DNA of 47,366 nt, taken from the IMG/VR virus record IMGVR_UViG_2630968533_000004; one strand, given 5' to 3'. Of the stretch, positions 1,317 to 19,121 are shown in pieces (within the stretch, counting starts at the first letter, position 1; every line of letters begins with the position of its first letter). A program made the position numbers and the translations under genes. The notes below the pieces were generated by a model. That model was given only the letters and a program-made list of their open reading frames with translations. It searched no databases and was not told where the DNA came from. Source of the stretch: a virus (Duplodnaviria > Heunggongvirae > Uroviricota > Caudoviricetes).

Positions 1317-1568
1317 TCAAGTAAGATGACGTCTTGGTCTTGCTGATGCCTGGCGCTCAATCCAGCGATCAATTTCTTCCAGGTTGTAAAAGCATGGACT
1401 GTTATCCCATGGCATACCGTCATGAGCGACATGCTTATATTCCCTTCCTTCCATAAACGATTTTTCCCGGGCCTTTTTTAACGTACCTTTTTTTATTCCT
1501 TTCAGCGCAATTAACTGCTCTTCGGATACCCATTTGCCGGGAGAGACAATCATGATTACTTCGCTCAT
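1317..1568 (-). CDS. Excisionase-like small protein
   Basis: 83-aa basic ORF immediately upstream of int on the same strand; size and position typical of prophage Xis. Confidence 0.6.
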   Translation of the reverse strand: MSEVIMIVSPGKWVSEEQLIALKGIKKGTLKKAREKSFMEGREYKHVAHDGMPWDNSPCFYNLEEIDRWIERQASARPRRHLT

Positions 1569-1640
1569 CGATTTCTTTATCTCTTACATCAGACGAGCGC
1601 CGGTTGCAGAATACCAGTCACAACCGGCGACAGTTGAACA

Positions 1641-4112
1641 TTAAGAATCAGCCTGACTCGGGATCAGTTTTTGCCAGATAGCTGAAACGTATTTTGCCTG
1701 GTAACGGGCGTCATCAAGTGCATTATGGCGCTCACCTTCGAATGGAATAGCCGTTCTGGCATCGAAGTCTATGGCTTTCCCCAGCTCAACGATTGTGCGT
1801 ACATCGCGATCGTTGTAGTAACGCCACGGGCAGGGGATCCCCTGCCGTTCGTATGAACGGCGCAAAATCGTGTTGTCGAAGTTGGCTCCATTTCCCCAGA
1901 CATGAACAAAAAATTCACCGGAGTTTTCGTCGATAAATTCCCGCAATTGTAACAGTGCATCATCTAACGGGATTTCATCGGTCATAATGGCAGATTGCGC
2001 TTCGCGTGATTGTTTAAGCCACCATTTAATGGTGTCCCGATCAATGACTCCGCCAGCAGTTTCCAGATCGATAGTCTTACTAAATTCCGGTCCCATATCT
2101 CCGGTTTGCGGATCGAAAAATATTGCACCTATTGAGATAATCGGGGCATCGGGATTTTTTCCCATGGTTTCAAGGTCGATCATCAGATGAATCCCCGCTC
2201 TGCTGGTGGATGTGAGATTATGATGACCGTTCACCTTAATTAAGGGATCTGACGCCTCGCCAGTTTCACTATCGCTGGCATGATGCTGATTGCTGCCAGT
2301 GTTCTCCTTGTGCTGATGCGCAGTGCCTTCCATTTCCTCCAGATCATTTTTCTGAACTTCAGGCTGATTCTCTCCATCGAATATTTCCTGGTATGTTGCG
2401 TCACCCATCACCGCACCACAATCAGGGCAGTTGCCGCCACCGCTCTGACCGCAGGCGGTGCAGATCTTTTCCGGTTCCTGTTGCACTACTGGTTCAGGTT
2501 GTTTCGTTTCTGGCTCGTTTTGTTGCGTATTTGGGCTGTTTTGTTCCGCTTTCTGGTCGTTCTGTTCCGTTTCTTGCTGGTTCTGGTTCACAGAATCGCG
2601 GGTCTGGATCCCCTTAATCCATTTCGGATCATTCGGGTCGCTAATCCCTTCAACAAATTCACCACGTGATACTGCAAGCAGTTCATCGGCGTCAGGCTGG
2701 CTGATATTGGCTGCCTGCATAATTTTGTTTACTTCGTCAGCGGTAACTTTTACTGACCCTGGTTGTGCGGTCGTGTCAGATGCACCAGTATTTTGTTGTG
2801 AACCTGAGTATGTACCGTTTTTGCGGGCGAAATATTCTTCTTTCGTGATTTCAGTAGCCCCAGCAGACAGCGCCTTATCCAGACCAGAAAGTTTATTTGC
2901 GCGACCGTATTTTTCGCCATCCTTGTCGGTGAAGAGGAAGTAGAACGGCCCCTCACGTTCTACAGATGGTTCGACTTCCACTTTGCATTCGGTTTTTTCG
3001 TTGTCTGGAATTGCCGTTTCCACTGCATCAGTTTCTGGTACTGGCGACGAGAGAGTATCAGTTGCGCTCTGATTTGTTCCTTCATCTTCAAACACGCCCT
3101 TTGTAGTCAGGTATTCAGTAATGTATTTGTTCAGTGCCACAGGGTCTTTGTGAATGTCGATCGGACGTTCACGGACAAGGCCAAAAATAGTCTGGCGGTC
3201 GTAGCGAAGGGCATCAGGCTGTTTGCGCATTGATGCCGAGATACGCTTCCAGTCTTCGCGGTCGTTGTCGATAACTTCATTTTTTGCCCAGCGATGGATG
3301 CTGCCGTCAATGTTTCCGGCATCCACATCACCAGGCCAGAGAGCGTAGGCCAGTTCGTCATCCAGTGTTTTCCATGTCTGCTTGTATTCGCGATGAATGG
3401 CAGCAATGACCGGGTTGATTTTTCCTGTTGAATTTTCAGTGTGCTGTTGATTGGCTCTGGCGCGGGCGAGATCAACAACAGACGTGTATTTTCCGGCTTC
3501 CTTGCGTTCACCTTCGCGACGTTTTTTCCAGATGCGCATCTCTGCCTGAATTTCGGGCCATTTGGCACCAGGCTTACATTTATGCTTAACCCACCCGATG
3601 GCATGCAGCTTAAGCTCCGGATACATAGCGTTAACTTCTGGCATTTTCATCAACGCTTCAACGATATGGCCGTCGAATGTTGCCATGTCTTCCTGCAACA
3701 ATTCCTGTGCGCTAATCACCATATCAACAGTGATGTTTTCACATGTGTCGAACTTAACCATGACAGCGTTCTGTACTTCAGGGGCTAGGTTGTCAAAAGT
3801 GACGTTCATCGGATCGGATTCAGTCTCGACCGGGACAAAGGAAGCAGACGCCTCATCCCAGCGGTTTTCCTGCATATATTCAGCATCCCAGGAATCGAGG
3901 GCAGGGCGGGGTATACCGGGTTTATCCTCGCAAACAAGAAATTTATAAGCGCAGTCCTGAGCAGCCGGATAATGTTCCAGGAATTGCCAGTGAAATTTTG
4001 CGCGGGCGCGACGTTCATCACCGGCTTCAATGGCAGTGGCTACAGCGACGGCACCTTCTTCCTTTATTGCCTGTTCGTCCGGAATGGCGGCGCAAATAAA
4101 GACTTTACTCAT
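1641..4112 (-). CDS. Large exonuclease with C-terminal DnaQ-like (DEDDh) 3'-5' exonuclease domain
   Basis: 823-aa ORF; C-terminus carries MIDLETMG (Exo I), WGNGANFDNTIL (Exo II) and HNALDDARYQAKY (Exo III, H-x4-D) motifs; central CTACGQSGGGNCPDCG zinc-ribbon-like motif and Q/N/E-rich low-complexity linker. Confidence 0.75.
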   Translation of the reverse strand: MSKVFICAAIPDEQAIKEEGAVAVATAIEAGDERRARAKFHWQFLEHYPAAQDCAYKFLVCEDKPGIPRPALDSWDAEYMQENRWDEASASFVPVETESDPMNVTFDNLAPEVQNAVMVKFDTCENITVDMVISAQELLQEDMATFDGHIVEALMKMPEVNAMYPELKLHAIGWVKHKCKPGAKWPEIQAEMRIWKKRREGERKEAGKYTSVVDLARARANQQHTENSTGKINPVIAAIHREYKQTWKTLDDELAYALWPGDVDAGNIDGSIHRWAKNEVIDNDREDWKRISASMRKQPDALRYDRQTIFGLVRERPIDIHKDPVALNKYITEYLTTKGVFEDEGTNQSATDTLSSPVPETDAVETAIPDNEKTECKVEVEPSVEREGPFYFLFTDKDGEKYGRANKLSGLDKALSAGATEITKEEYFARKNGTYSGSQQNTGASDTTAQPGSVKVTADEVNKIMQAANISQPDADELLAVSRGEFVEGISDPNDPKWIKGIQTRDSVNQNQQETEQNDQKAEQNSPNTQQNEPETKQPEPVVQQEPEKICTACGQSGGGNCPDCGAVMGDATYQEIFDGENQPEVQKNDLEEMEGTAHQHKENTGSNQHHASDSETGEASDPLIKVNGHHNLTSTSRAGIHLMIDLETMGKNPDAPIISIGAIFFDPQTGDMGPEFSKTIDLETAGGVIDRDTIKWWLKQSREAQSAIMTDEIPLDDALLQLREFIDENSGEFFVHVWGNGANFDNTILRRSYERQGIPCPWRYYNDRDVRTIVELGKAIDFDARTAIPFEGERHNALDDARYQAKYVSAIWQKLIPSQADS

Positions 4113-4581: not shown

Positions 4582-4755
4582 TATCGCGTCCTCAACAATG
4601 AATTTTGTGATGCGGTGCCTGGTGCCTCCAGGTGACGTTAACCAGTTAACAATTAACGCCGGATACAGAGAATCCACCCATAACACTGTTTTTGGTTTTA
4701 ACTGTTCCGCGTGCGCTCAGCCGCATTCACCGCATCACAAAATTCACTTTAAAAA

Positions 4756-4808
4756 GGGCGGCAGAGCAGTCACGGAGTAAAACTGATACCGCCAAACGTC
4801 ACCAGAAA
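4756..4808 (-). ncRNA. dicF: DicF small RNA (53 nt) followed by U-tract
   Basis: Reverse complement of 4756..4808 reads TTTCTGGTGACGTTTGGCGGTATCAGTTTTACTCCGTGACTGCTCTGCCGCCC followed by TTTTTAA, matching the recalled DicF sequence; located between ydfA-like and dicB as in Qin. Confidence 0.8.
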
Positions 4809-5083
4809 ATTGATAACAGAGGGCGTTGCAGCGGGGTTGTCACTTAAGCGTATGGTCAACCTGACAACTCGGTGTCCTCAACGGGGAAGGAATAACCCCG
4901 CCATACTTACCGCCGCGCCATTTCGCGGGTTGCCACAACCGGAAGCGCACGGTCGAATTAAATTTAACGACACCGTACAGTGAGACGAACTTCGCCGTGC
5001 GCTTTCGTGTTGTATGCCTGCTTTTAACCACGTCAGGCGAGGTGGTATCCTTCTTATCCCGAATAACCAAGAAGGAAATCTAT

Positions 5084-5284
5084 ATGACTAAAGAAGAATT
5101 TGTCTCTTATATTTTTGATAAAACGGTTGAAATGTATGCCGCTACTTACGGGTCCTGTAATCCTCTGAATAAACCAGAGGGGAAAGATGATTTCGACAAA
5201 ATTTACCGCTTCTTGGAGGACCGCTATATCAAAAGGTTAGAGGACGCAGGGATCAAATCCCCAGTGAAGTCACCATTGTCCTGA
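5084..5284 (+). CDS. Hypothetical small protein (66 aa)
   Basis: ATG at 5084 preceded by GAAGGAAA RBS; AT-rich; opposite strand to the surrounding early-left operon. Confidence 0.4.
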   Translation: MTKEEFVSYIFDKTVEMYAATYGSCNPLNKPEGKDDFDKIYRFLEDRYIKRLEDAGIKSPVKSPLS

Positions 5285-5630
5285 GAACTTGCAGGACGTC
5301 ATGATCGTAACTTCCATCCAAACCGCGACGGCAAATTGCTTCTCGTATTACCGGAAGCAGTTCGCTGGAAATCTCGGTGCATATTTCACCTGATAATACG
5401 CCTGGCTCAAGTGAGAATATTGGTGAACTTACGGTCTTGGTCTCGACAGTTTCAGAGTCAGTGCCAACATTATAAAGCTCAACGAAAGCGGTCTTGATTT
5501 TCCGGGCCAGATCTTTTGCTGGCTCGCTTGCAATATCTTTCCCGATTTCTCGCAGCACAGAATGCAATGTATGAGCTGCTGTTTTCTGTACATCAGACGG
5601 TAAATCTTTAAATTCCATCGTCAGCCTCAT
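5253..5630 (-). CDS. Hypothetical early-left operon protein (possibly YdfB/YdfC-like)
   Basis: 125-aa ORF between ydfA-like gene and DicF on the operon strand; family assignment from position only. Confidence 0.45.
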   Translation of the reverse strand: MRLTMEFKDLPSDVQKTAAHTLHSVLREIGKDIASEPAKDLARKIKTAFVELYNVGTDSETVETKTVSSPIFSLEPGVLSGEICTEISSELLPVIREAICRRGLDGSYDHDVLQVLRTMVTSLGI

Positions 5631-5782
5631 CAGTCAGTGTTTCTGGCTAACCAGCAACGCGCGCCAGATTCGGTTTTAAACGTTTTGCTTTTGGTATATG
5701 TCATCGCGGTGAACGTACCGTCCTGGTTGGGGAACACGCCACATACCAGAGATTCGCTGTTGCCAAGATCGATAGTATCCAT
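5630..5782 (-). CDS. ydfA: YdfA-like small protein (50 aa)
   Basis: Internal Met of ORF 5630..5938 gives MDTIDLGNSESLVCGVFPNQDGTFTAMTYTKSKTFKTESGARCWLARNTD; first gene of the operon downstream of the dicA-proximal promoter region. Confidence 0.55.
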   Translation of the reverse strand: MDTIDLGNSESLVCGVFPNQDGTFTAMTYTKSKTFKTESGARCWLARNTD

Positions 5783-5897
5783 GCTGACCTCATTTCCCCT
5801 TAACGCCGGGGTAGCGGAACTGTTTGCTGAGAACACCGTGCGGTGTCTTGATGGAAGTAATTTAGTTTTCTCATTATTTTTCGTCAAGGTTTTTTGA

Positions 5898-5909
5898 TGA
5901 GAAAACTCA
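5898..5909. promoter_or_regulatory. Palindromic operator-like site TGAGAAAACTCA upstream of early-left operon
   Basis: 12-bp perfect palindrome in the sequence TTGATGAGAAAACTCAAGTATTGG, repeated almost exactly at 6433..6446. Confidence 0.5.
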
Positions 5910-5974
5910 AGTATTGGCGCAAGATAAAGCCAATACATTGAAATGTAAGGCTTTAAAATTTTGTGAAGGGATGA

Positions 5975-6382
5975 TTATTGATGCTTGTTGCGTTTGCGAG
6001 CCTCTAATAGCTCGGTGAACAGGCGATTAAAATTCTCAACGCGGGCGCGGAGTTCGCTGAGTTGTGCTTGTTGCTCTGATTTAGGAAGTGCGCGATACAA
6101 ACGCAGCATCTCTAACTCATCTTCCGATAAGTCTAAGGCACTATCGAGTGAAACAGGGGGAGCTGGTGTTTTGTCCTCGTCGCCAAACAGTATCCAGGTT
6201 GGTGAACATTGCAATACCTCGGCGAGGCGATGCAAATTTTGCCCGCGCGGGGCTGTATGGTCACTTTCCCATAATGAAATTGATGAGCCAGATACGCCAG
6301 CAGCTTTGCTTAAACCGTTTTGACTTAAGCCTACCTGCTTACGTCTTTCTCTAATGCGTTGACCTAAAGTTTTCTCGTTCAT
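5975..6382 (-). CDS. dicA: DicA-type HTH (XRE-family) repressor
   Basis: Internal Met of ORF 5975..6433 gives 135 aa MNEKTLGQRIRERRKQVGLSQNGLSKAAGVSGSSISLWESDHTAPRGQNLHRLAEVLQCSPTWILFGDEDK...; HTH motif plus C-terminal region resembling recalled DicA; divergent from a Cro-like gene. Confidence 0.85.
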   Translation of the reverse strand: MNEKTLGQRIRERRKQVGLSQNGLSKAAGVSGSSISLWESDHTAPRGQNLHRLAEVLQCSPTWILFGDEDKTPAPPVSLDSALDLSEDELEMLRLYRALPKSEQQAQLSELRARVENFNRLFTELLEARKRNKHQ

Positions 6383-9802: not shown

Positions 9803-10873
9803 AAATATATTGATGTAAAATAAAACGCACCCACATTTAACTTAGCTAGACTATATCCTTCAATTATTCTATCTGCTTTTTGTTAAATGTGGGGTTGCAG
9901 ATGTTACGAGTCAATTAAATTTGCAAGTCAGGTAGAATTGATAAGAATTGCAATACGAATCCGTGAACATTAATGCTAACGCTAAGTATACGAAAGATAT
10001 TGTAAATATACTTCTTTTTTTGTTTTTAAGTTCTTTTATTTGACAGTAGTTCCATCATTCAATTGCGTATTATCTTCCAATGCCAGTGACACTCCCTCAT
10101 TATGAGAGGATTGTGGTAATCAAAAGAAAAATTAATATCACGCCAAGAATATTCGAAACCAACCCTATGGTGTTAAGTCCTGGTGATGTCATTTAGTTTG
10201 CTCTAGGTTTATTATTCAGAAAGCAAAGAATATTCGTTAAATTATTATGTTAGCTTTAATTATTAAAAAACATGTTAATTATCATCAAATGAGCACTTAT
10301 CATCATTTTAGTCAAAGAGGTAGTGAGTATTCATTCTGGATCATAACTGCCTTCCTGTTTACGCTAGTGTTTTTTAAAGTCGATGTCCGCTCATCGCTCA
10401 AAGCGGACTAGAAGGTTAGCTTGTGTCGGACTTTGCGTATTAAATGACTAGTGGTTGAGCCCCATTTCCACAGAAAAAATCAGAGAAACTATACCCAATA
10501 GTTGTATTGAATCACTGACGAGACAGCCTCATATTCATCAGGACTGGTGTACGTCCAATACAGGAGGTTGTGGTGCTGGTTCTCAAATGTGCGCTGGCTA
10601 TTACGGCTGTAATGGCGATTTATTGTCTTGCTATTGTTCTTATGGATCGCCTTTCTGACTGATTTCACATTGGCGAGGTAACGGTAGTTAAGTAGAATGG
10701 CTGCGGGTGCTTGAGGCTATCTGCCTCGGGCATGAACACCAACGGCAGATAGAGAAAAGCCCCAGTTAACATTACGCGTCCTGCAAGACGCTTAACATTA
10801 ATCTGAGGCCAATTTCATGCTAGACACATGTAGGTTAGCCTCTTACGTGCCGAAAGGCAAGGAGAAGCAGGCT

Positions 10874-11029
10874 ATGAAGCAGCAAAAGGCGATGTTAATC
10901 GCCCTGATCGTCATCTGTTTAACCGTCATAGTGACGGCACTGGTAACGAGGAAAGACCTCTGCGAGGTACGAATCCGAACCGGGCAGACGGAGGTCGCTG
11001 TCTTCACAGCTTACGAACCTGAGGAGTAA
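10874..11029 (+). CDS. hokD: Hok/Gef-family type I toxin
   Basis: 51 aa MKQQKAMLIALIVICLTVIVTALVTRKDLCEVRIRTGQTEVAVFTAYEPEE matches recalled HokD/RelF; ORF extends upstream in-frame (10817). Confidence 0.85.
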   Translation: MKQQKAMLIALIVICLTVIVTALVTRKDLCEVRIRTGQTEVAVFTAYEPEE

Positions 11030-13276: not shown

Positions 13277-14098
13277 ATGAAACTGGAAGATTTACCGAAA
13301 TACTACTCCCCAAAATCCCCTGGCCTGACCGATGCATCGGCCTCAACGTCAAAAGATGCGCTGAGTATCACTGATGTGATGGCCGCGCAGGGCATGACAC
13401 AGAATCGGGCTGAGATGGGTTTTTCTGCGTTCCTGGGGAAAATGGGCATCAGTATGAATGACAGGGCGCGGGCAACAGAATTACTGGCAGATTATGCACT
13501 CAGTCGGTGCGATCGTGTGGCGGCGTTGAGAAAACTTCCGGCAGAAATAAAACCGGTAGTGATGCGCATTATGGCTTCGTACGCTTTTGAGGATTATGCC
13601 CGCAGCGCAGCGAGTAAAAAGCAGTGCCCTTGTTGCTATGGGGAAAAATTTATTGAAAGCATAGTTTTTACAAACAAGGTCCAGTATCCGGATGGTAAGC
13701 CGCCGGTATGGGCAAAGTGTACGAAAGGTGTGTATCCGTCTTACTGGGAAGAATGGAAAAAAGTCAGGGAGGTGGTAAAAGTTGCCTGTCCGGAGTGTGG
13801 CGGAAAGGGTGAGGTTTCCACCGCCTGTAAGGATTGCCGTGGGCGTGGTGTCGCCATTCATCGTGAAGAGTCGGTAAAACGTGGTATGCCTGTTGTCAGA
13901 GACTGCCAGCGTTGTGGTGGTCGTGGCTATGAAAGACTACCATCAACGGAGGCATTTAATGCTATATGCGAGGTGACAAACCAGATAACACGCGCGTCAT
14001 GGGAAAAAACAGTTAAGAAATTCTATGATGCGCTGGTGACCCGGTTTGATATTGAAGAAGCATGGGCTGAGCGGCAGTTAAAAAAGGTAACTAGGTAA
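13277..14098 (+). CDS. Late-gene antiterminator Q
   Basis: 273 aa with Cys-rich zinc-binding segments (CPCCYG, CPECGGKGEVSTACKDCRGRG, CQRCGGRG); immediately upstream of pR'-like promoter, terminator and tRNAs. Confidence 0.8.
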   Translation: MKLEDLPKYYSPKSPGLTDASASTSKDALSITDVMAAQGMTQNRAEMGFSAFLGKMGISMNDRARATELLADYALSRCDRVAALRKLPAEIKPVVMRIMASYAFEDYARSAASKKQCPCCYGEKFIESIVFTNKVQYPDGKPPVWAKCTKGVYPSYWEEWKKVREVVKVACPECGGKGEVSTACKDCRGRGVAIHREESVKRGMPVVRDCQRCGGRGYERLPSTEAFNAICEVTNQITRASWEKTVKKFYDALVTRFDIEEAWAERQLKKVTR

Positions 14099-14178: not shown

Positions 14179-14203
14179 AACCCGCCGCCGAGCGGGTTTT
14201 TTA
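14179..14203 (+). terminator. tR'-like rho-independent terminator
   Basis: AACCCGCCGCCGAGCGGGTTTTTTATT hairpin plus U-tract about 50 nt after the promoter. Confidence 0.6.
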
Positions 14204-14417: not shown

Positions 14418-14494
14418 GCGTTGTTAGCTCAGCCGGACAGAGCAATTGCCTTCTAAGCAATCGGTCACTGGTTCGAATCCAGTACAGCGCGCCA
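14418..14494 (+). tRNA. tRNA-Arg (anticodon UCU)
   Basis: Acceptor GCGTTGT/ACAGCGC, anticodon stem ATTGC/GCAAT with loop CTTCTAA, T-loop GGTTCGAATCC, CCA end. Confidence 0.85.
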
Positions 14495-14604: not shown

Positions 14605-14958
14605 TTGATTGAGTGTTTGTTATACGGTCTAATGGTTTTTTCAGCATTAAATATTTATCATTCATATGGTGTGGGTAGAGTGAATATTGATGAGGCGTCG
14701 GGGTGTTTCATCCTTAGGCAGCGTATTGATATAGTCAATGCAGCACGAGCAAAGGCCTTCAGCCGTTTGACAGTTTTGTTCTGTGCTCCTGATCGTCTTT
14801 CGGGAAGAGACGTTATTATTCTGAATAGTGATGCTATACAGAGGGTTTGCGATGAGTTCATGGTTGCTAATTCAGAATTATTTGCTCTTGTTCAGGAGTA
14901 CAACAGAATAGCCAGGACCTGTGGTATGGATGAACTTCGGATTACTCATCTGGGGTAG
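14605..14958 (+). CDS. Hypothetical protein in late-operon moron slot
   Basis: 117-aa ORF between tRNAs and lysis genes; start uncertain (TTG at 14605, ATG at 14632). Confidence 0.4.
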   Translation: MIECLLYGLMVFSALNIYHSYGVGRVNIDEASGCFILRQRIDIVNAARAKAFSRLTVLFCAPDRLSGRDVIILNSDAIQRVCDEFMVANSELFALVQEYNRIARTCGMDELRITHLG

Positions 14959-15491
14959 ATACATATCTGGATTATCACCTGTTACGGTAAAAAGTGATTG
15001 CTTACTGTTTTTGTGAATGGCATTGCAGCAGCCGGATAATGTCAGTGCTGGCTGACGGTGTGCTGGTGGCGGGTGTGGTGGTTGTTGCTTTCCCGTTGCT
15101 GAAAAAGAAAACGCCAGACTGTTAGCCGGGTATCAGTTAGCGGGAGAAATTTTTAAATACTTCACAATTCAGGCGGTTGACTGTTCTCTGGTTTGCGGGG
15201 AGTTTGTTAAAAGAAACTGGCATGGTGAATCCCCCTGTGCGGAGGGGCAATCAGCGAGTAGGTATATGGGATAATCGCGGATTCAGGTGCTGGTACTGAA
15301 TTCACCGGGAGGCACCCGGCACCATGCACTTCAATAGATTCTCTCCACATTATGGATATTCTTTCAGAATATCCCACGCAGACTTTGTGTAAATGTTAAC
15401 AAATGTGCGTTTTATTTGATCTGATTCGCTGTTTGAGCGTCCAAAACAACGGTATATATAATCCTTTACTATATGACATATGTGAGGAAAA

Positions 15492-15920
15492 ATGGGTTTT
15501 CGTAGCGCATCAATTCTTACGTTGATTATTAGTGGGATTATTATCGGGTGCACTGATGCTGTATCGACAAATTATCATGACCGTACATCATATTACTCCG
15601 ATAAAGCAATAGAGACACAGTATGTGAGTTCATCTGAACGTACTTCTGATGTTAGTGAGGATATCCGTCTGTATGCCCATCAAATCAAGAGCGCCATCGA
15701 AAAACAGTTCGGGGATGCGAGTAAGTATTCAGGAAAAGAGTGTACACTGAGAATGCATATGGCCCCGAATGGCCTTCTACTGGAGGTTAAAAGAGAAAGT
15801 GGAGACCTCGATTTATGTCGTGAAGCGATGAATGCGATAAAGAATGTTGATATACCTGCCCCCCCTTCGCCGGAAGTATATAAAGTATTTCAAAATGGGG
15901 TGCTGGATTTTAAACCCTGA
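15492..15920 (+). CDS. Lipoprotein with TolA C-terminal (domain III)-like domain
   Basis: Signal peptide with lipobox LIISGIIIGC; C-terminus YAHQIKSAIEKQFGDASKYSGKECTLRMHMAPNGLLLEVKRESGDLDLCREAMNAIKNVDIPAPPSPEVYKVFQNGVLDFKP aligns by eye with recalled E. coli TolA C-terminus (...GKTCTLRIKLAPDGMLLDIKPEGGDPALCQAALAAAKLAKIPKPPSQAVYEVFKNAPLDFKP). Confidence 0.8.
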   Translation: MGFRSASILTLIISGIIIGCTDAVSTNYHDRTSYYSDKAIETQYVSSSERTSDVSEDIRLYAHQIKSAIEKQFGDASKYSGKECTLRMHMAPNGLLLEVKRESGDLDLCREAMNAIKNVDIPAPPSPEVYKVFQNGVLDFKP

Positions 15921-16070
15921 TATTTATTGTTTTGTAATAAACGGTTTCGGCTTAGGTTTGTTCTGACACAACTACGGCACTGAGCTAAATTTAGCGGATA
16001 GTCAGCTCTGAGCCAGTGGCGGACGTAACAACTACTATTGCTGAGATTTTAATGGATTGAGGAGCAAGAA

Positions 16071-16466
16071 GTGGGATTAAAGAAAATCGTTATGTTGACT
16101 TTTTGGGTCGGTTTTGTTGCGGGATGCACACCTTTACACCCTTCAGATTGCCACAAAACTACTGCTACAGGTAGTTGCAGTTCAGGACGCTGGGATGATC
16201 AGGATGAATGGGGGGCGCAAGCGCGGGGAATCAGAGCTGCAATTAATGCCAAACTTGATGAGCCGCATAACTGGAAAGGGAAAAAATGCAGGTTGCATAT
16301 GGAATTCTCTCAGGATGGCACGGCGTTAAAAATATCTACCAGTAACGGTGATAAAGCCTATTGCGAAGCGATAAAGTCCGCAGCTCATAAAGCCAAATTT
16401 CCGGCCTTCAACAATCCGGAAGTCTACAGAGATTTTCAGAAATCTGGCTTTGACATGCGAGGTTAG
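16071..16466 (+). CDS. Second lipoprotein, divergent TolA-III-like paralogue
   Basis: Signal peptide with lipobox FVAGC; C-terminus GKKCRLHMEFSQDGTALKISTSNGDKAYCEAIKSAAHKAKFPAFNNPEVYRDFQ shares the Cys...Cys and PxVY pattern of the upstream gene. Confidence 0.7.
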   Translation: MGLKKIVMLTFWVGFVAGCTPLHPSDCHKTTATGSCSSGRWDDQDEWGAQARGIRAAINAKLDEPHNWKGKKCRLHMEFSQDGTALKISTSNGDKAYCEAIKSAAHKAKFPAFNNPEVYRDFQKSGFDMRG

Positions 16467-16717
16467 CTCTTCAATTACTATATCTCATTCATAGCAAACT
16501 GACAGATTTGATGATGTTCTATATACGAAACCTGTGATGTCAAGTCTGAGCTAATACAAATAAACATAATATCAGAGAAATACATTTTATTAGCTCGCTA
16601 CGGCGAGCTTTTTATATTGCATCGTCTCCAGCATATATATCAATTAAGGCTCTGATTGATGTGTCTGGAAGCCTACACATAATAACTATGCCATCCGTTC
16701 CGTGCGGAGGTGAGGCT

Positions 16718-16933
16718 ATGAAATCCATGGACAAAATTTCAACAGGCATTGCCTACGGCACCTCCGCAGGCAGTGCTGGCTACTGGTTTTTACAGCTGCT
16801 CGATAAAGTCACGCCCTCACAGTGGGCAGCAATAGGTGTGCTGGGTAGCCTGGTATTTGGCCTGCTGACGTACCTGACAAATCTTTATTTCAAGATTAAA
16901 GAAGACAGGCGTAAGGCTGCGAGAGGAGAGTAA
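16718..16933 (+). CDS. Holin, phage-21 S21-type (pinholin)
   Basis: 71 aa [31 protein letters not shown]...[15 protein letters not shown]; dual-start MKSM motif; near-identical to recalled S21/EssQ. Confidence 0.85.
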
Positions 16934-16937
16934 TCCA

Positions 16938-17245
16938 ATGACTCAATACTATGAACTGGTTGTGAAAGGAGTCCGTAATTTTGAGAATAAAGTTACGGTA
17001 ACTGTAGCCTTACAGGACAAAGAACGCTTTGACGGTGAAATTTTTGGCCTGGATGTCGCCATGGACCGTGTTGAAGGAGCTGCGCTGGAGTTTTATGAGG
17101 CAGCAGCCAGAATGAGCGTCCGGCAAGTCTTCCTGGAAGTAGCAGAAAAATTGTCAGAAAAAGTTGAGTCTTATCTGCAGCATCAGTACTCCTTTAAGAT
17201 TGAAAATCCTGCCAATAAGCACGAGCGTCCTCATCATAAATATCT

Positions 17246-17249
<4 letters not shown>
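16938..17249 (+). CDS. YdfR-like protein between holin and endolysin
   Basis: 103-aa ORF; same size and position as Qin ydfR. Confidence 0.55.
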
Positions 17250-18273
<1,024 letters not shown>

Positions 18274-18637
18274 ATTAATATTAAATCGGATTATTTTTAG
18301 CGCTGAATGTGAAATTTAAATAAAAAGGACTCTTCCATGAGTCAAAATCCTTGAAATCTTAAGGGTAAGATAAAAGGTCATTAGACAGAATGACACGTTT
18401 TATTAATAAATAAAGCTATTGTTTCATTCGTGTGTTTTTCTTTACAAAAGTAATCCTTGCTATGGTTGGTTAATCATGCGTTAATGGTGTTCTGGTTTGT
18501 TACAAAATTATCTGAAGCAGTCATTGTTATAATTTTATTATTTGTACCTCTTGAGATTTCCTTGTTGGTTTTTCTCTCTGATATTTTTTTTTCGGACCAT
18601 TCTGCCCAAGGGCTAACTTCTTCAAAAGGTAATAATG

Positions 18638-18850
18638 ATGTCTAACAAAATGACTGGTTTAGTGAAATGGTTTAACCCTGAAAAAGGTTTTGGTTTCATC
18701 ACGCCGAAAGATGGTAGCAAAGATGTGTTTGTGCATTTCTCAGCTATTCAGAGCAACGATTTCAAAACGTTAACTGAGAATCAGGAAGTCGAATTTGGTA
18801 TTGAGAACGGACCTAAAGGCCCTGCAGCTGTTCATGTAGTGGCACTTTGA
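18638..18850 (+). CDS. cspI: Cold-shock protein (CspA family, CspI-like)
   Basis: [38 protein letters not shown]... with RNP1/RNP2 motifs; long AT-rich 5' leader typical of csp genes. Confidence 0.85.
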
Positions 18851-19121
18851 GGTAGAAAATATTACAAACCATATTCACTTTAGATGCCCGTGTTGCCATG
18901 GTTCTCAGTATAGAACATCATCTTTTGATGTTTCTGACAGAAATCCTTTCGGGGCAAAATGTATCTTTTGTAAATCAATGATGATTACATTTGATAATAT
19001 TTCACAATACTTAAATGTTAGCCATCTGTCGTTAGATTTAAGAAAGTGAAAATGAAGGCTCCTTCGGGAGCTTTTTTGCTTAGTGTCTAGTCGATGGATA
19101 CTCACATATTACGGTAACATT

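Follow-up and report, generated by a model that had tools for sequence, protein, structure and literature searches.

TolA domain III lipobox proteins of a Qin-like Escherichia coli prophage and their relatives: candidate decoys for Tol-dependent entry

The DNA analyzed here (IMG/VR record IMGVR_UViG_2630968533_000004, 47,366 nucleotides; the window) is a Qin-like lambdoid prophage of Escherichia coli in which two adjacent open reading frames (ORFs), ORF A and ORF B, lie between the gene for the Q antiterminator and the lysis genes. Both products are lipobox proteins in which TolA's C-terminal domain (domain III, TolAIII) is the sole folded part, and they belong to a real, widespread and functionally uncharacterized class of TolAIII-only proteins. 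We propose, at roughly even chances, that ORF A and ORF B act as un-energized outer-membrane decoys for TolA ligands and would thereby provide tolerance to bacteriocins and filamentous phages.

TolA domain III in ORF A and ORF B

Profile searches placed both proteins in the TolA C-terminal family PF06519 above its cut-off of 25 bits (ORF A, 80.9 bits, E = 8e-23; ORF B, 54.6 bits, E = 1e-14), and the solved E. coli TolAIII chains of the PDB were matched with E = 1.9e-27 and E = 5.2e-9, respectively. AlphaFold2 models presented per-residue confidence scores (pLDDTs) of ~88-97 across the TolAIII domain of both proteins, and the top PDB matches of both models were TolAIII structures (2X9A_B, 3QDP and 1TOL; target TM-score 0.86-0.92, root-mean-square deviation 0.8-1.5 A), including complexes with the g3p proteins of phages If1 and M13. 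On 2X9A and 3QDP, superposition of the models gave 0.8-1.3 A. Identity to residues 334-421 of E. coli TolA was 59% for ORF A and 34% for ORF B, and the Cys363/Cys388 pair is present in both. Both proteins additionally matched phrog_5772 (ORF A, E = 1.8e-61; ORF B, E = 6.7e-65), a group that PHROG lists as "unknown function".

The N-termini of both proteins are composed of a short basic n-region, a hydrophobic stretch and a lipobox, with the lipobox cysteine followed by T-D in ORF A and T-P in ORF B. When the lipobox was defined by the regular expression [LVI][ASTVI][GAS]C with no Asp at position +2, it was kept in 151 of 166 homologues, and residue +2 was never Asp. Following the standard Lol-sorting rule, a lipobox lacking Asp at this position predicts outer-membrane lipoproteins, and ORF A and ORF B would both be anchored in that membrane. 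Just 25-35 residues, predicted to be disordered or modeled with low confidence, connect the lipobox cysteine to domain III. An earlier note on this DNA, made from its letters and ORF translations, had described two lipobox-bearing proteins that align with TolA domain III, including the cysteine pair and the C-terminus of ORF A, and had named profile- and structure-based searches as the check; both searches were run and found the TolAIII fold in each protein, with PF06519, the PDB matches and the AlphaFold2 models in agreement. The structural reading of that note is correct, and its functional idea of a lipid-anchored decoy is plausible.

Neither ORF A nor ORF B is a TolA protein, despite the TolA C-terminal domain that each contains. 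Of four features that define TolA, domain III with its disulfide is present, whereas domain I, domain II and a location in the tol-pal operon are all missing. Against the TolA profile NF007065 (cut-off 213 bits), ORF A scored 105 bits and ORF B 54 bits, with profile positions 293-386 alone being matched. PGAP/RefSeq calls ORF A "tolA, cell envelope integrity protein TolA" (a label also given at L001 6143-6571) because its domain III alone passes TIGR02794 (73.9 versus 59.45 bits), and this name is wrong. For ORF B, PGAP selects an internal ATG at 16092, and the signal peptide thereby loses its basic n-region; as homology among B-type genes starts at ~16034 in all other contexts, the GTG start at 16071 is favored.

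TolAIII is a hub that binds its partners via beta-strand addition, with g3p-N1, colicin N and the TolB N-terminus all docking at strand beta3 (PMC4339652; PMC7391070), while colicin A uses beta2 (residues 375-380, aided by K368, K379 and K396; PMC3365938). At the beta3 site, structural propensity outweighs sequence, and either D418P or K420P in TolA abolishes binding of g3p and colicin N (PMC4339652). This edge strand is identical to that of TolA in ORF A (LDFKP) and reads FDMR, a proline-free beta-former, in ORF B. The colicin A site is mostly kept in ORF A, with LLEVK for LLDIK and with K379 and K396 retained. Across 61 diverse TolAIII-only lipoproteins, Y340, I344, I348, C363, C388, L417, D418 and F419 are conserved as in genuine TolA, D418 being kept in 69% of them.

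Separate families and a wider TolAIII-only class

ORF A and ORF B are accessory genes of the prophage that are unrelated by descent. Their identity to each other is 27-30%, and each forms a cassette of its own. The A cassette consists of an STnc100-family small RNA element, a promoter-like site and ORF A, and window positions 15159-15921 are 88% identical to positions 4672-5430 of a related prophage locus (L016), in which element and gene occur in the same order. In each of the contexts compared, the B cassette comprises no more than the ORF and its ribosome-binding site (~16034-16469). Ratios of non-synonymous to synonymous substitution rates (dN/dS) were 0.28-0.39 for the A family and 0.08-0.15 for the B family at dS 0.5-1.0, so that the B family is under strong purifying selection.

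Three other origins were considered and rejected. Tandem duplication followed by divergence, which the earlier note had favored in treating the second copy as diversified from the first, is ruled out by the low identity, the separate families with different host ranges, the separate cassette boundaries and the purifying selection on B. Recent capture of the 3' end of a host tolA gene was likewise discarded, since a sensitive blastn search of ORF A against 5426 complete E. coli genomes matched prophage copies and never chromosomal tolA, with which no nucleotide similarity was found; at the protein level, ORF A is about equidistant from E. coli TolA (59%) and from other mini-lipoproteins (50-55%). 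Decaying fragments or pseudogenes are excluded by dN/dS values of 0.08-0.39 together with the conserved lipobox.

The A family is small and restricted to E. coli prophages, with members in 898 of the 5426 genomes. In six related loci (L013-L018), it occupies the slot between Q and holin next to varied Q types, and B is absent there. The whole A+B pair was recovered at >=99% identity (at least 99%) from 774 of the 5426 genomes and a partial match to the locus from 1340, the 1.1-kb TolAIII region being 100% identical in many of them. A single phage record out of 50,697 carried A or B, namely Escherichia phage mEp460_ev081, which is essentially the same prophage, and a scan of IMG/VR using the family alignment returned near-identical ORF A copies only and no new diversity. 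The only PLSDB match with the full A+B pair, the 4.94-Mb record NZ_CP141089.1, is evidently an E. coli chromosome.

The B family comprises 368 sequence clusters with 78-89% identity across Citrobacter, Enterobacter, Serratia, Klebsiella and Raoultella. B-type genes reside at fixed non-phage chromosomal loci in Enterobacter kobei and Serratia marcescens, adjoining GmrSD and HEPN genes in Serratia, and are not part of the E. coli K-12-type core genome. They further occur on ~600 plasmid records, directly 3' of the relaxase gene on IncI-complex (IncB/O/K/Z) conjugative plasmids and upstream of toxB on pO157. The linker between lipobox and domain III contains two additional cysteines and the motif GRWDDQDEWG and hardly varies across these genera, as would be expected if it took part in a defined, conserved interaction and were not simply a flexible tether.

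Such conservation could mean that B is primarily an Enterobacterales outer-membrane lipoprotein, a TolA paralogue with a ligand of its own (TolB, Pal, CpoB or a cell-wall enzyme), and that its prophage and plasmid copies hitch-hike or give generic envelope fitness unrelated to phage or bacteriocin entry. The low dN/dS at dS up to 1.0, the high identity between genera, the fixed non-mobile locus in E. kobei and the invariant linker would all be expected of such a protein. However, the tight cassette of ribosome-binding site and ORF has been captured repeatedly, by the prophage, by IncI-complex plasmids and by pO157, the gene does not belong to the K-12-type core genome, and the prophage-only A family would be left unexplained, which together make this explanation unlikely in our view. 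A role in mating is very improbable. According to this idea, the B-type protein would serve entry or surface exclusion, or stabilize the transfer apparatus, with the prophage copy being a stray; it would suit the hundreds of plasmids on which the gene sits directly 3' of a nikB-type relaxase gene or inside MPF_I regions, sometimes adjoining DsbC/thioredoxin-fold genes. Yet the gene is found equally on the non-conjugative pO157, on small mobilizable bacteriocin plasmids, on chromosomes and in prophages, and no homology to known exclusion proteins was detected in profile searches. The thioredoxin-fold or DsbC-family genes next to or near TolAIII genes were seen on MPF_I-type conjugative plasmids (L100, NZ_CP050361.1, 6217-7246; L004, 8505-9629) and may be relevant to formation of the TolAIII disulfide.

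The class extends well beyond the two families. A profile search of 1.84 billion representative proteins yielded 594 matches at E<=0.001; among the best 150 of these, 99 are of at most 170 amino acids, and a lipobox was present in 67 of the 99. On plasmids, a TolAIII-only gene was found in ~1300 of 72,556 records, including pO157, IncI-complex resistance plasmids and 10-12 kb Klebsiella bacteriocin plasmids, and a 144-amino-acid type was found on ~300 large conjugative Klebsiella plasmids. On small Klebsiella ColRNAI plasmids, the gene for a 123-amino-acid TolAIII lipoprotein overlaps, within one operon, that for a TonB C-terminal domain with a signal peptide (PF03544, E = 9e-11), and this operon adjoins a cluster for a colicin-like tRNase bacteriocin, its immunity protein and a lysis protein. 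The identical 123-amino-acid gene is carried by 379 plasmid records. The presence of such genes on a cloacin-like plasmid has been mentioned, without interpretation, in PMC10269471.

Prophage setting and expression

As the earlier note had it, the pair lies between Q with its tRNAs and the holin gene, which is followed by lysozyme and Rz genes (Table 1), in a region that is richer in AT than its flanks. Guanine-plus-cytosine (GC) content is 0.40-0.46 over 15200-16800, compared to 0.48-0.55 upstream and 0.53-0.56 in the structural genes, with values of 0.42 and 0.46 for the unit itself. A sigma70-like promoter site precedes ORF A and is the best consensus match in the 3.3 kb scanned (10 of 12 positions), and a terminator-like hairpin separates ORF B from the holin gene and would, in a lysogen, keep transcripts of the unit from running into the lysis genes. 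No conserved promoter of its own was seen for ORF B across the contexts compared. The layout resembles classical moron anatomy and would allow expression in the lysogen. The lower GC and the presence or absence of the pair among related prophages are in keeping with the moron slot proposed in the earlier note; the promoter- and terminator-like signals are consensus matches only.

The position of the genes also invites an opposite interpretation, as TolAIII lipoproteins could bind the N-terminal strand of TolB and exert a dominant-negative effect on Pal mobilization, deliberately loosening the outer membrane to the benefit of phage lysis and virion escape, of bacteriocin release on Col-type plasmids, or of outer-membrane vesicle formation in pathogens. 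Within the Q-dependent late operon, both genes immediately precede the holin-endolysin-Rz cassette, a related "TolA" gene of prophage CP-933O rose 32-fold upon ciprofloxacin induction (PMC11125564), and the Klebsiella relatives adjoin a bacteriocin-plus-lysis-protein cluster. The TolB-binding beta3 strand, with its frequently kept D418, is moreover the best-conserved surface feature of the mini-proteins. Exported periplasmic TolAIII alone makes E. coli leaky, according to PMC6195910 (citing Wan & Baneyx 1998; Levengood-Freyermuth et al. 1993), which presents it as a standard biotechnological means of leaking periplasmic proteins. Against this stand the full holin, endolysin and Rz set that the prophage already has, the stable upkeep of B-type genes on conjugative plasmids and at non-lytic loci of chromosomes, settings in which lasting damage to the envelope would carry a cost, and the promoter- and terminator-like flanks, which suggest lysogen expression insulated from the lysis genes. 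TolAIII also binds TolB weakly (40-200 uM; PMC4339652; PMC7391070), and the Klebsiella plasmid pair is transcribed divergently from the bacteriocin operon. On balance, we regard envelope loosening, and the benefits drawn from it, as the main alternative to decoys but as rather unlikely.

The STnc100-family element directly 5' of ORF A scored 114 bits against Rfam RF02076 (gathering score 47 bits). Further copies were found in two of the related prophage loci, at 4704-4877, 5599-5803 and 5854-6061 in both L016 and L017 and at 2589-2802 in L016 alone, with 80-114 bits over all copies. Such elements flank A-type TolAIII genes in several prophages, and in L016 two copies occupy the place that ORF B has in the window. 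The elements might be markers of recombination points or of the borders of cassettes, or they might control the gene downstream of them. A link between STnc100 and the PasD small RNA is drawn in a 2026 preprint.

The prophage gene set includes DicF, sok/hokD, rem, ydfU, rusA, Q, two tRNAs, essD, ydfR, rrrQ, rzpQ, cspI and terminase; the presence of DicF and sok/hokD fits a Qin-type backbone. Between the tRNAs and the TolAIII cassette lie two small ORFs, the first of which (117 amino acids) had no match in Pfam and PADLOC searches. The tRNA with a CAT anticodon was assigned to Met by ARAGORN and to Ile by PGAP, and is probably a lysidine-modified AUA reader. ATA, AGA and AGG codons make up 3.4-4.8 per 100 in Q, ORF A, ORF B and the lysis genes, and 0.7-2.1 in the structural genes. 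The cspI-like stretch 3' of the lysis cassette is very AT-rich (GC 0.30-0.37).

Table 1 Positions of ORF A, ORF B and neighboring features in the window, and of the Klebsiella TolAIII operon in plasmid records
Feature	Position	Strand	Remarks
DicF antisense RNA	4756-4807	-	
sok antitoxin RNA	10705-10879	+	with hokD
Q antiterminator gene	13277-14098	+	PF03589
Terminator-like hairpin	14179-14198		3' of Q; pattern match
tRNA, CAT anticodon	14242-14317		
tRNA-Arg(TCT)	14418-14494		
117-aa ORF	14605-14958	+	TTG start; between tRNAs and TolAIII cassette
43-aa DUF3927 gene	14994-15125	+	between tRNAs and TolAIII cassette
STnc100-family prophage small RNA element	15191-15381	+	directly 5' of ORF A; Rfam RF02076, 114 bits
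Sigma70-like promoter site	15433-15462	+	TTGAGC-18-TATAAT; ~30 nt 5' of ORF A start; consensus match only
ORF A ribosome-binding site	15484-15488		GAGGA
ORF A	15492-15920	+	142 aa; lipoprotein signal peptide, linker, TolA domain III
ORF A lipobox	15549-15551 (Cys codon)		IIG-C20
ORF A linker			~35 residues; low model confidence
ORF A TolA domain III	15654-15917		aa 55-142; C-terminus LDFKP
ORF B ribosome-binding site	16060-16064		AGGAG
ORF B	16071-16466	+	131 aa; GTG start
ORF B lipobox	16125-16127 (Cys codon)		VAG-C19
ORF B Cys-rich linker	16128-16202		aa 20-44; CxPLHPSxCHKTTAxGSCSSGRWDDQDEWG; family-invariant
ORF B TolA domain III	16203-16463		aa 45-131; C-terminus FDMRG
Terminator-like hairpin	16592-16609, with T-run to 16619	+	AGCTCGC-TACG-GCGAGCT plus T-run; between ORF B and holin; pattern match only
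Lysis cassette	16661-18273	+	P21-type holin, DUF1327 protein, lysozyme, Rz-like DUF2514 protein
P21-type holin	16661/16718-16933	+	PGAP start 16718
cspA-type thermoregulator 5' leader	18479-18896	+	Rfam RF01766, 109 bits
cspI-like cold-shock gene	18635-18850	+	
TolAIII plus mini-TonB operon	L099 (NZ_CP031718.1) 1512-2245	-	
TolAIII plus mini-TonB operon	L101 8482-9215	-	

The decoy proposal and known systems

Without the inner-membrane anchor of domain I, which couples TolA to TolQ and TolR, and without the helical domain II, neither protein can transmit force or be energized by TolQR. If tethered just beneath the outer membrane as predicted, ORF A and ORF B could serve as dead-end decoys on which ligands would dock by beta-strand addition, among them g3p N1, the segments with which group A colicins, cloacins and klebicins bind TolA, and perhaps also TolB through its N-terminal strand. 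Any ligand bound to the decoy in place of energized TolA would stall in import. This would render the lysogen, or the plasmid host in the case of the relatives, tolerant to Tol-dependent bacteriocins and filamentous phages at the price of some Tol-Pal modulation. The GRWDDQDEWG linker of ORF B might in addition mimic the TolB-box of a colicin or of Pal and clamp TolB at two sites.

The contexts in which the genes are found fit the proposed decoys circumstantially, comprising the moron slot of a prophage, plasmids that encode pili, bacteriocin plasmids with a parallel TonB fragment and a defense neighborhood. Phage If1 uses IncI pili as its receptor, and PDB 2X9A shows If1 g3p bound to TolAIII. 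Work by Levengood-Freyermuth and colleagues in 1993 is reported to have also obtained tolerance to group A colicins from exported TolAIII. In the reciprocal arrangement, periplasmic g3p-N1 sequesters TolA, resulting in colicin A resistance and 4-log lower phage uptake (PMC10424213).

Several observations weigh against decoys. The surface of ORF B has strongly diverged from E. coli TolAIII, with Y340 replaced and the colicin A site lost. Selection on B is purifying, not diversifying, and the gene is vertically stable at non-mobile E. kobei loci, so that a conserved endogenous partner fits at least as well as an arms race. The TolAIII genes sit in the late operon and, taken together with the ciprofloxacin response of the CP-933O gene, their expression may be mainly lytic. 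Binding of the TolB N-terminus by a decoy would in itself bring about an envelope defect of the tol type. No PADLOC defense model was matched by either protein, and a literature search found incidental mentions only and no functional study of these proteins.

More broadly, and more tentatively, Enterobacterales mobile elements may carry widespread, unrecognized "energy-transducer decoys", i.e., lipid-anchored or periplasmic forms of just the docking domain from the C-terminus of TolA, and of TonB too on Klebsiella bacteriocin plasmids. Tol- and Ton-dependent bacteriocins, as well as filamentous phages that rely on pili, would be caught by them beneath the outer membrane, giving broad, receptor-independent tolerance, and conjugative plasmids would in this way make up for the opening to phages that their own pili create. 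Decoys of this kind would represent a new logic of entry-level defense on mobile elements, based on co-receptor mimicry instead of masking of a surface receptor. TolAIII-only genes could then explain part of the natural insensitivity to colicins and klebicins, a point of importance for therapies based on bacteriocins or filamentous phages and for the ecology of phages that depend on plasmids. Should the proteins antagonize Tol-Pal instead, they would be natural inhibitors of relevance to vesiculation, lysis and envelope permeability in pathogens.

Compared to E. coli TolA itself, ORF A and ORF B share the Pfam domain, fold and disulfide pair of domain III (~334-421; 1S62, 3QDP, 1TOL and 2X9A), but they lack the transmembrane domain I and helical domain II (142 and 131 versus 421 amino acids) and are encoded outside the tolQRA-tolB-pal operon, between phage Q and holin. 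A lipoprotein signal peptide replaces the inner-membrane anchor, which leaves the domain un-energized and probably at the opposite membrane. Laboratory periplasmic TolAIII constructs (Levengood-Freyermuth, Click & Webster 1993; Wan & Baneyx 1998) are likewise isolated domain III uncoupled from TolQR, although these are soluble, over-expressed and artificial, whereas ORF A and ORF B are natural, diverged, located on mobile elements and predicted to be lipid-anchored.

Small mobile-element lipoproteins thought to act at cell entry are also known in T5 Llp, the Cor proteins of phi80, N15 and HK022, and plasmid TraT, with Llp being described in 10.64898/2026.03.26.714494. ORF A and ORF B have no sequence relationship to Llp, Cor or TraT, and while Llp and Cor mask the outer-membrane receptor FhuA, the prophage proteins would mimic a periplasmic co-receptor. 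Exclusion by g3p (pIII) relies on the same g3p-N1/TolAIII interface and results in colicin tolerance and a block of filamentous-phage uptake, but there a phage ligand saturates the real TolA, whereas here a fake TolA would soak up the ligand. A further parallel is the Klebsiella ColRNAI operon (NZ_CP031718.1), which also encodes a TolAIII-only lipoprotein on a mobile element (123 amino acids, lipobox LLTAC, C-terminus NAPLDFRP); it is ~27% identical to ORF B over the domain and differs from the prophage pair in being coupled to a mini-TonB and linked to a tRNase bacteriocin cluster.

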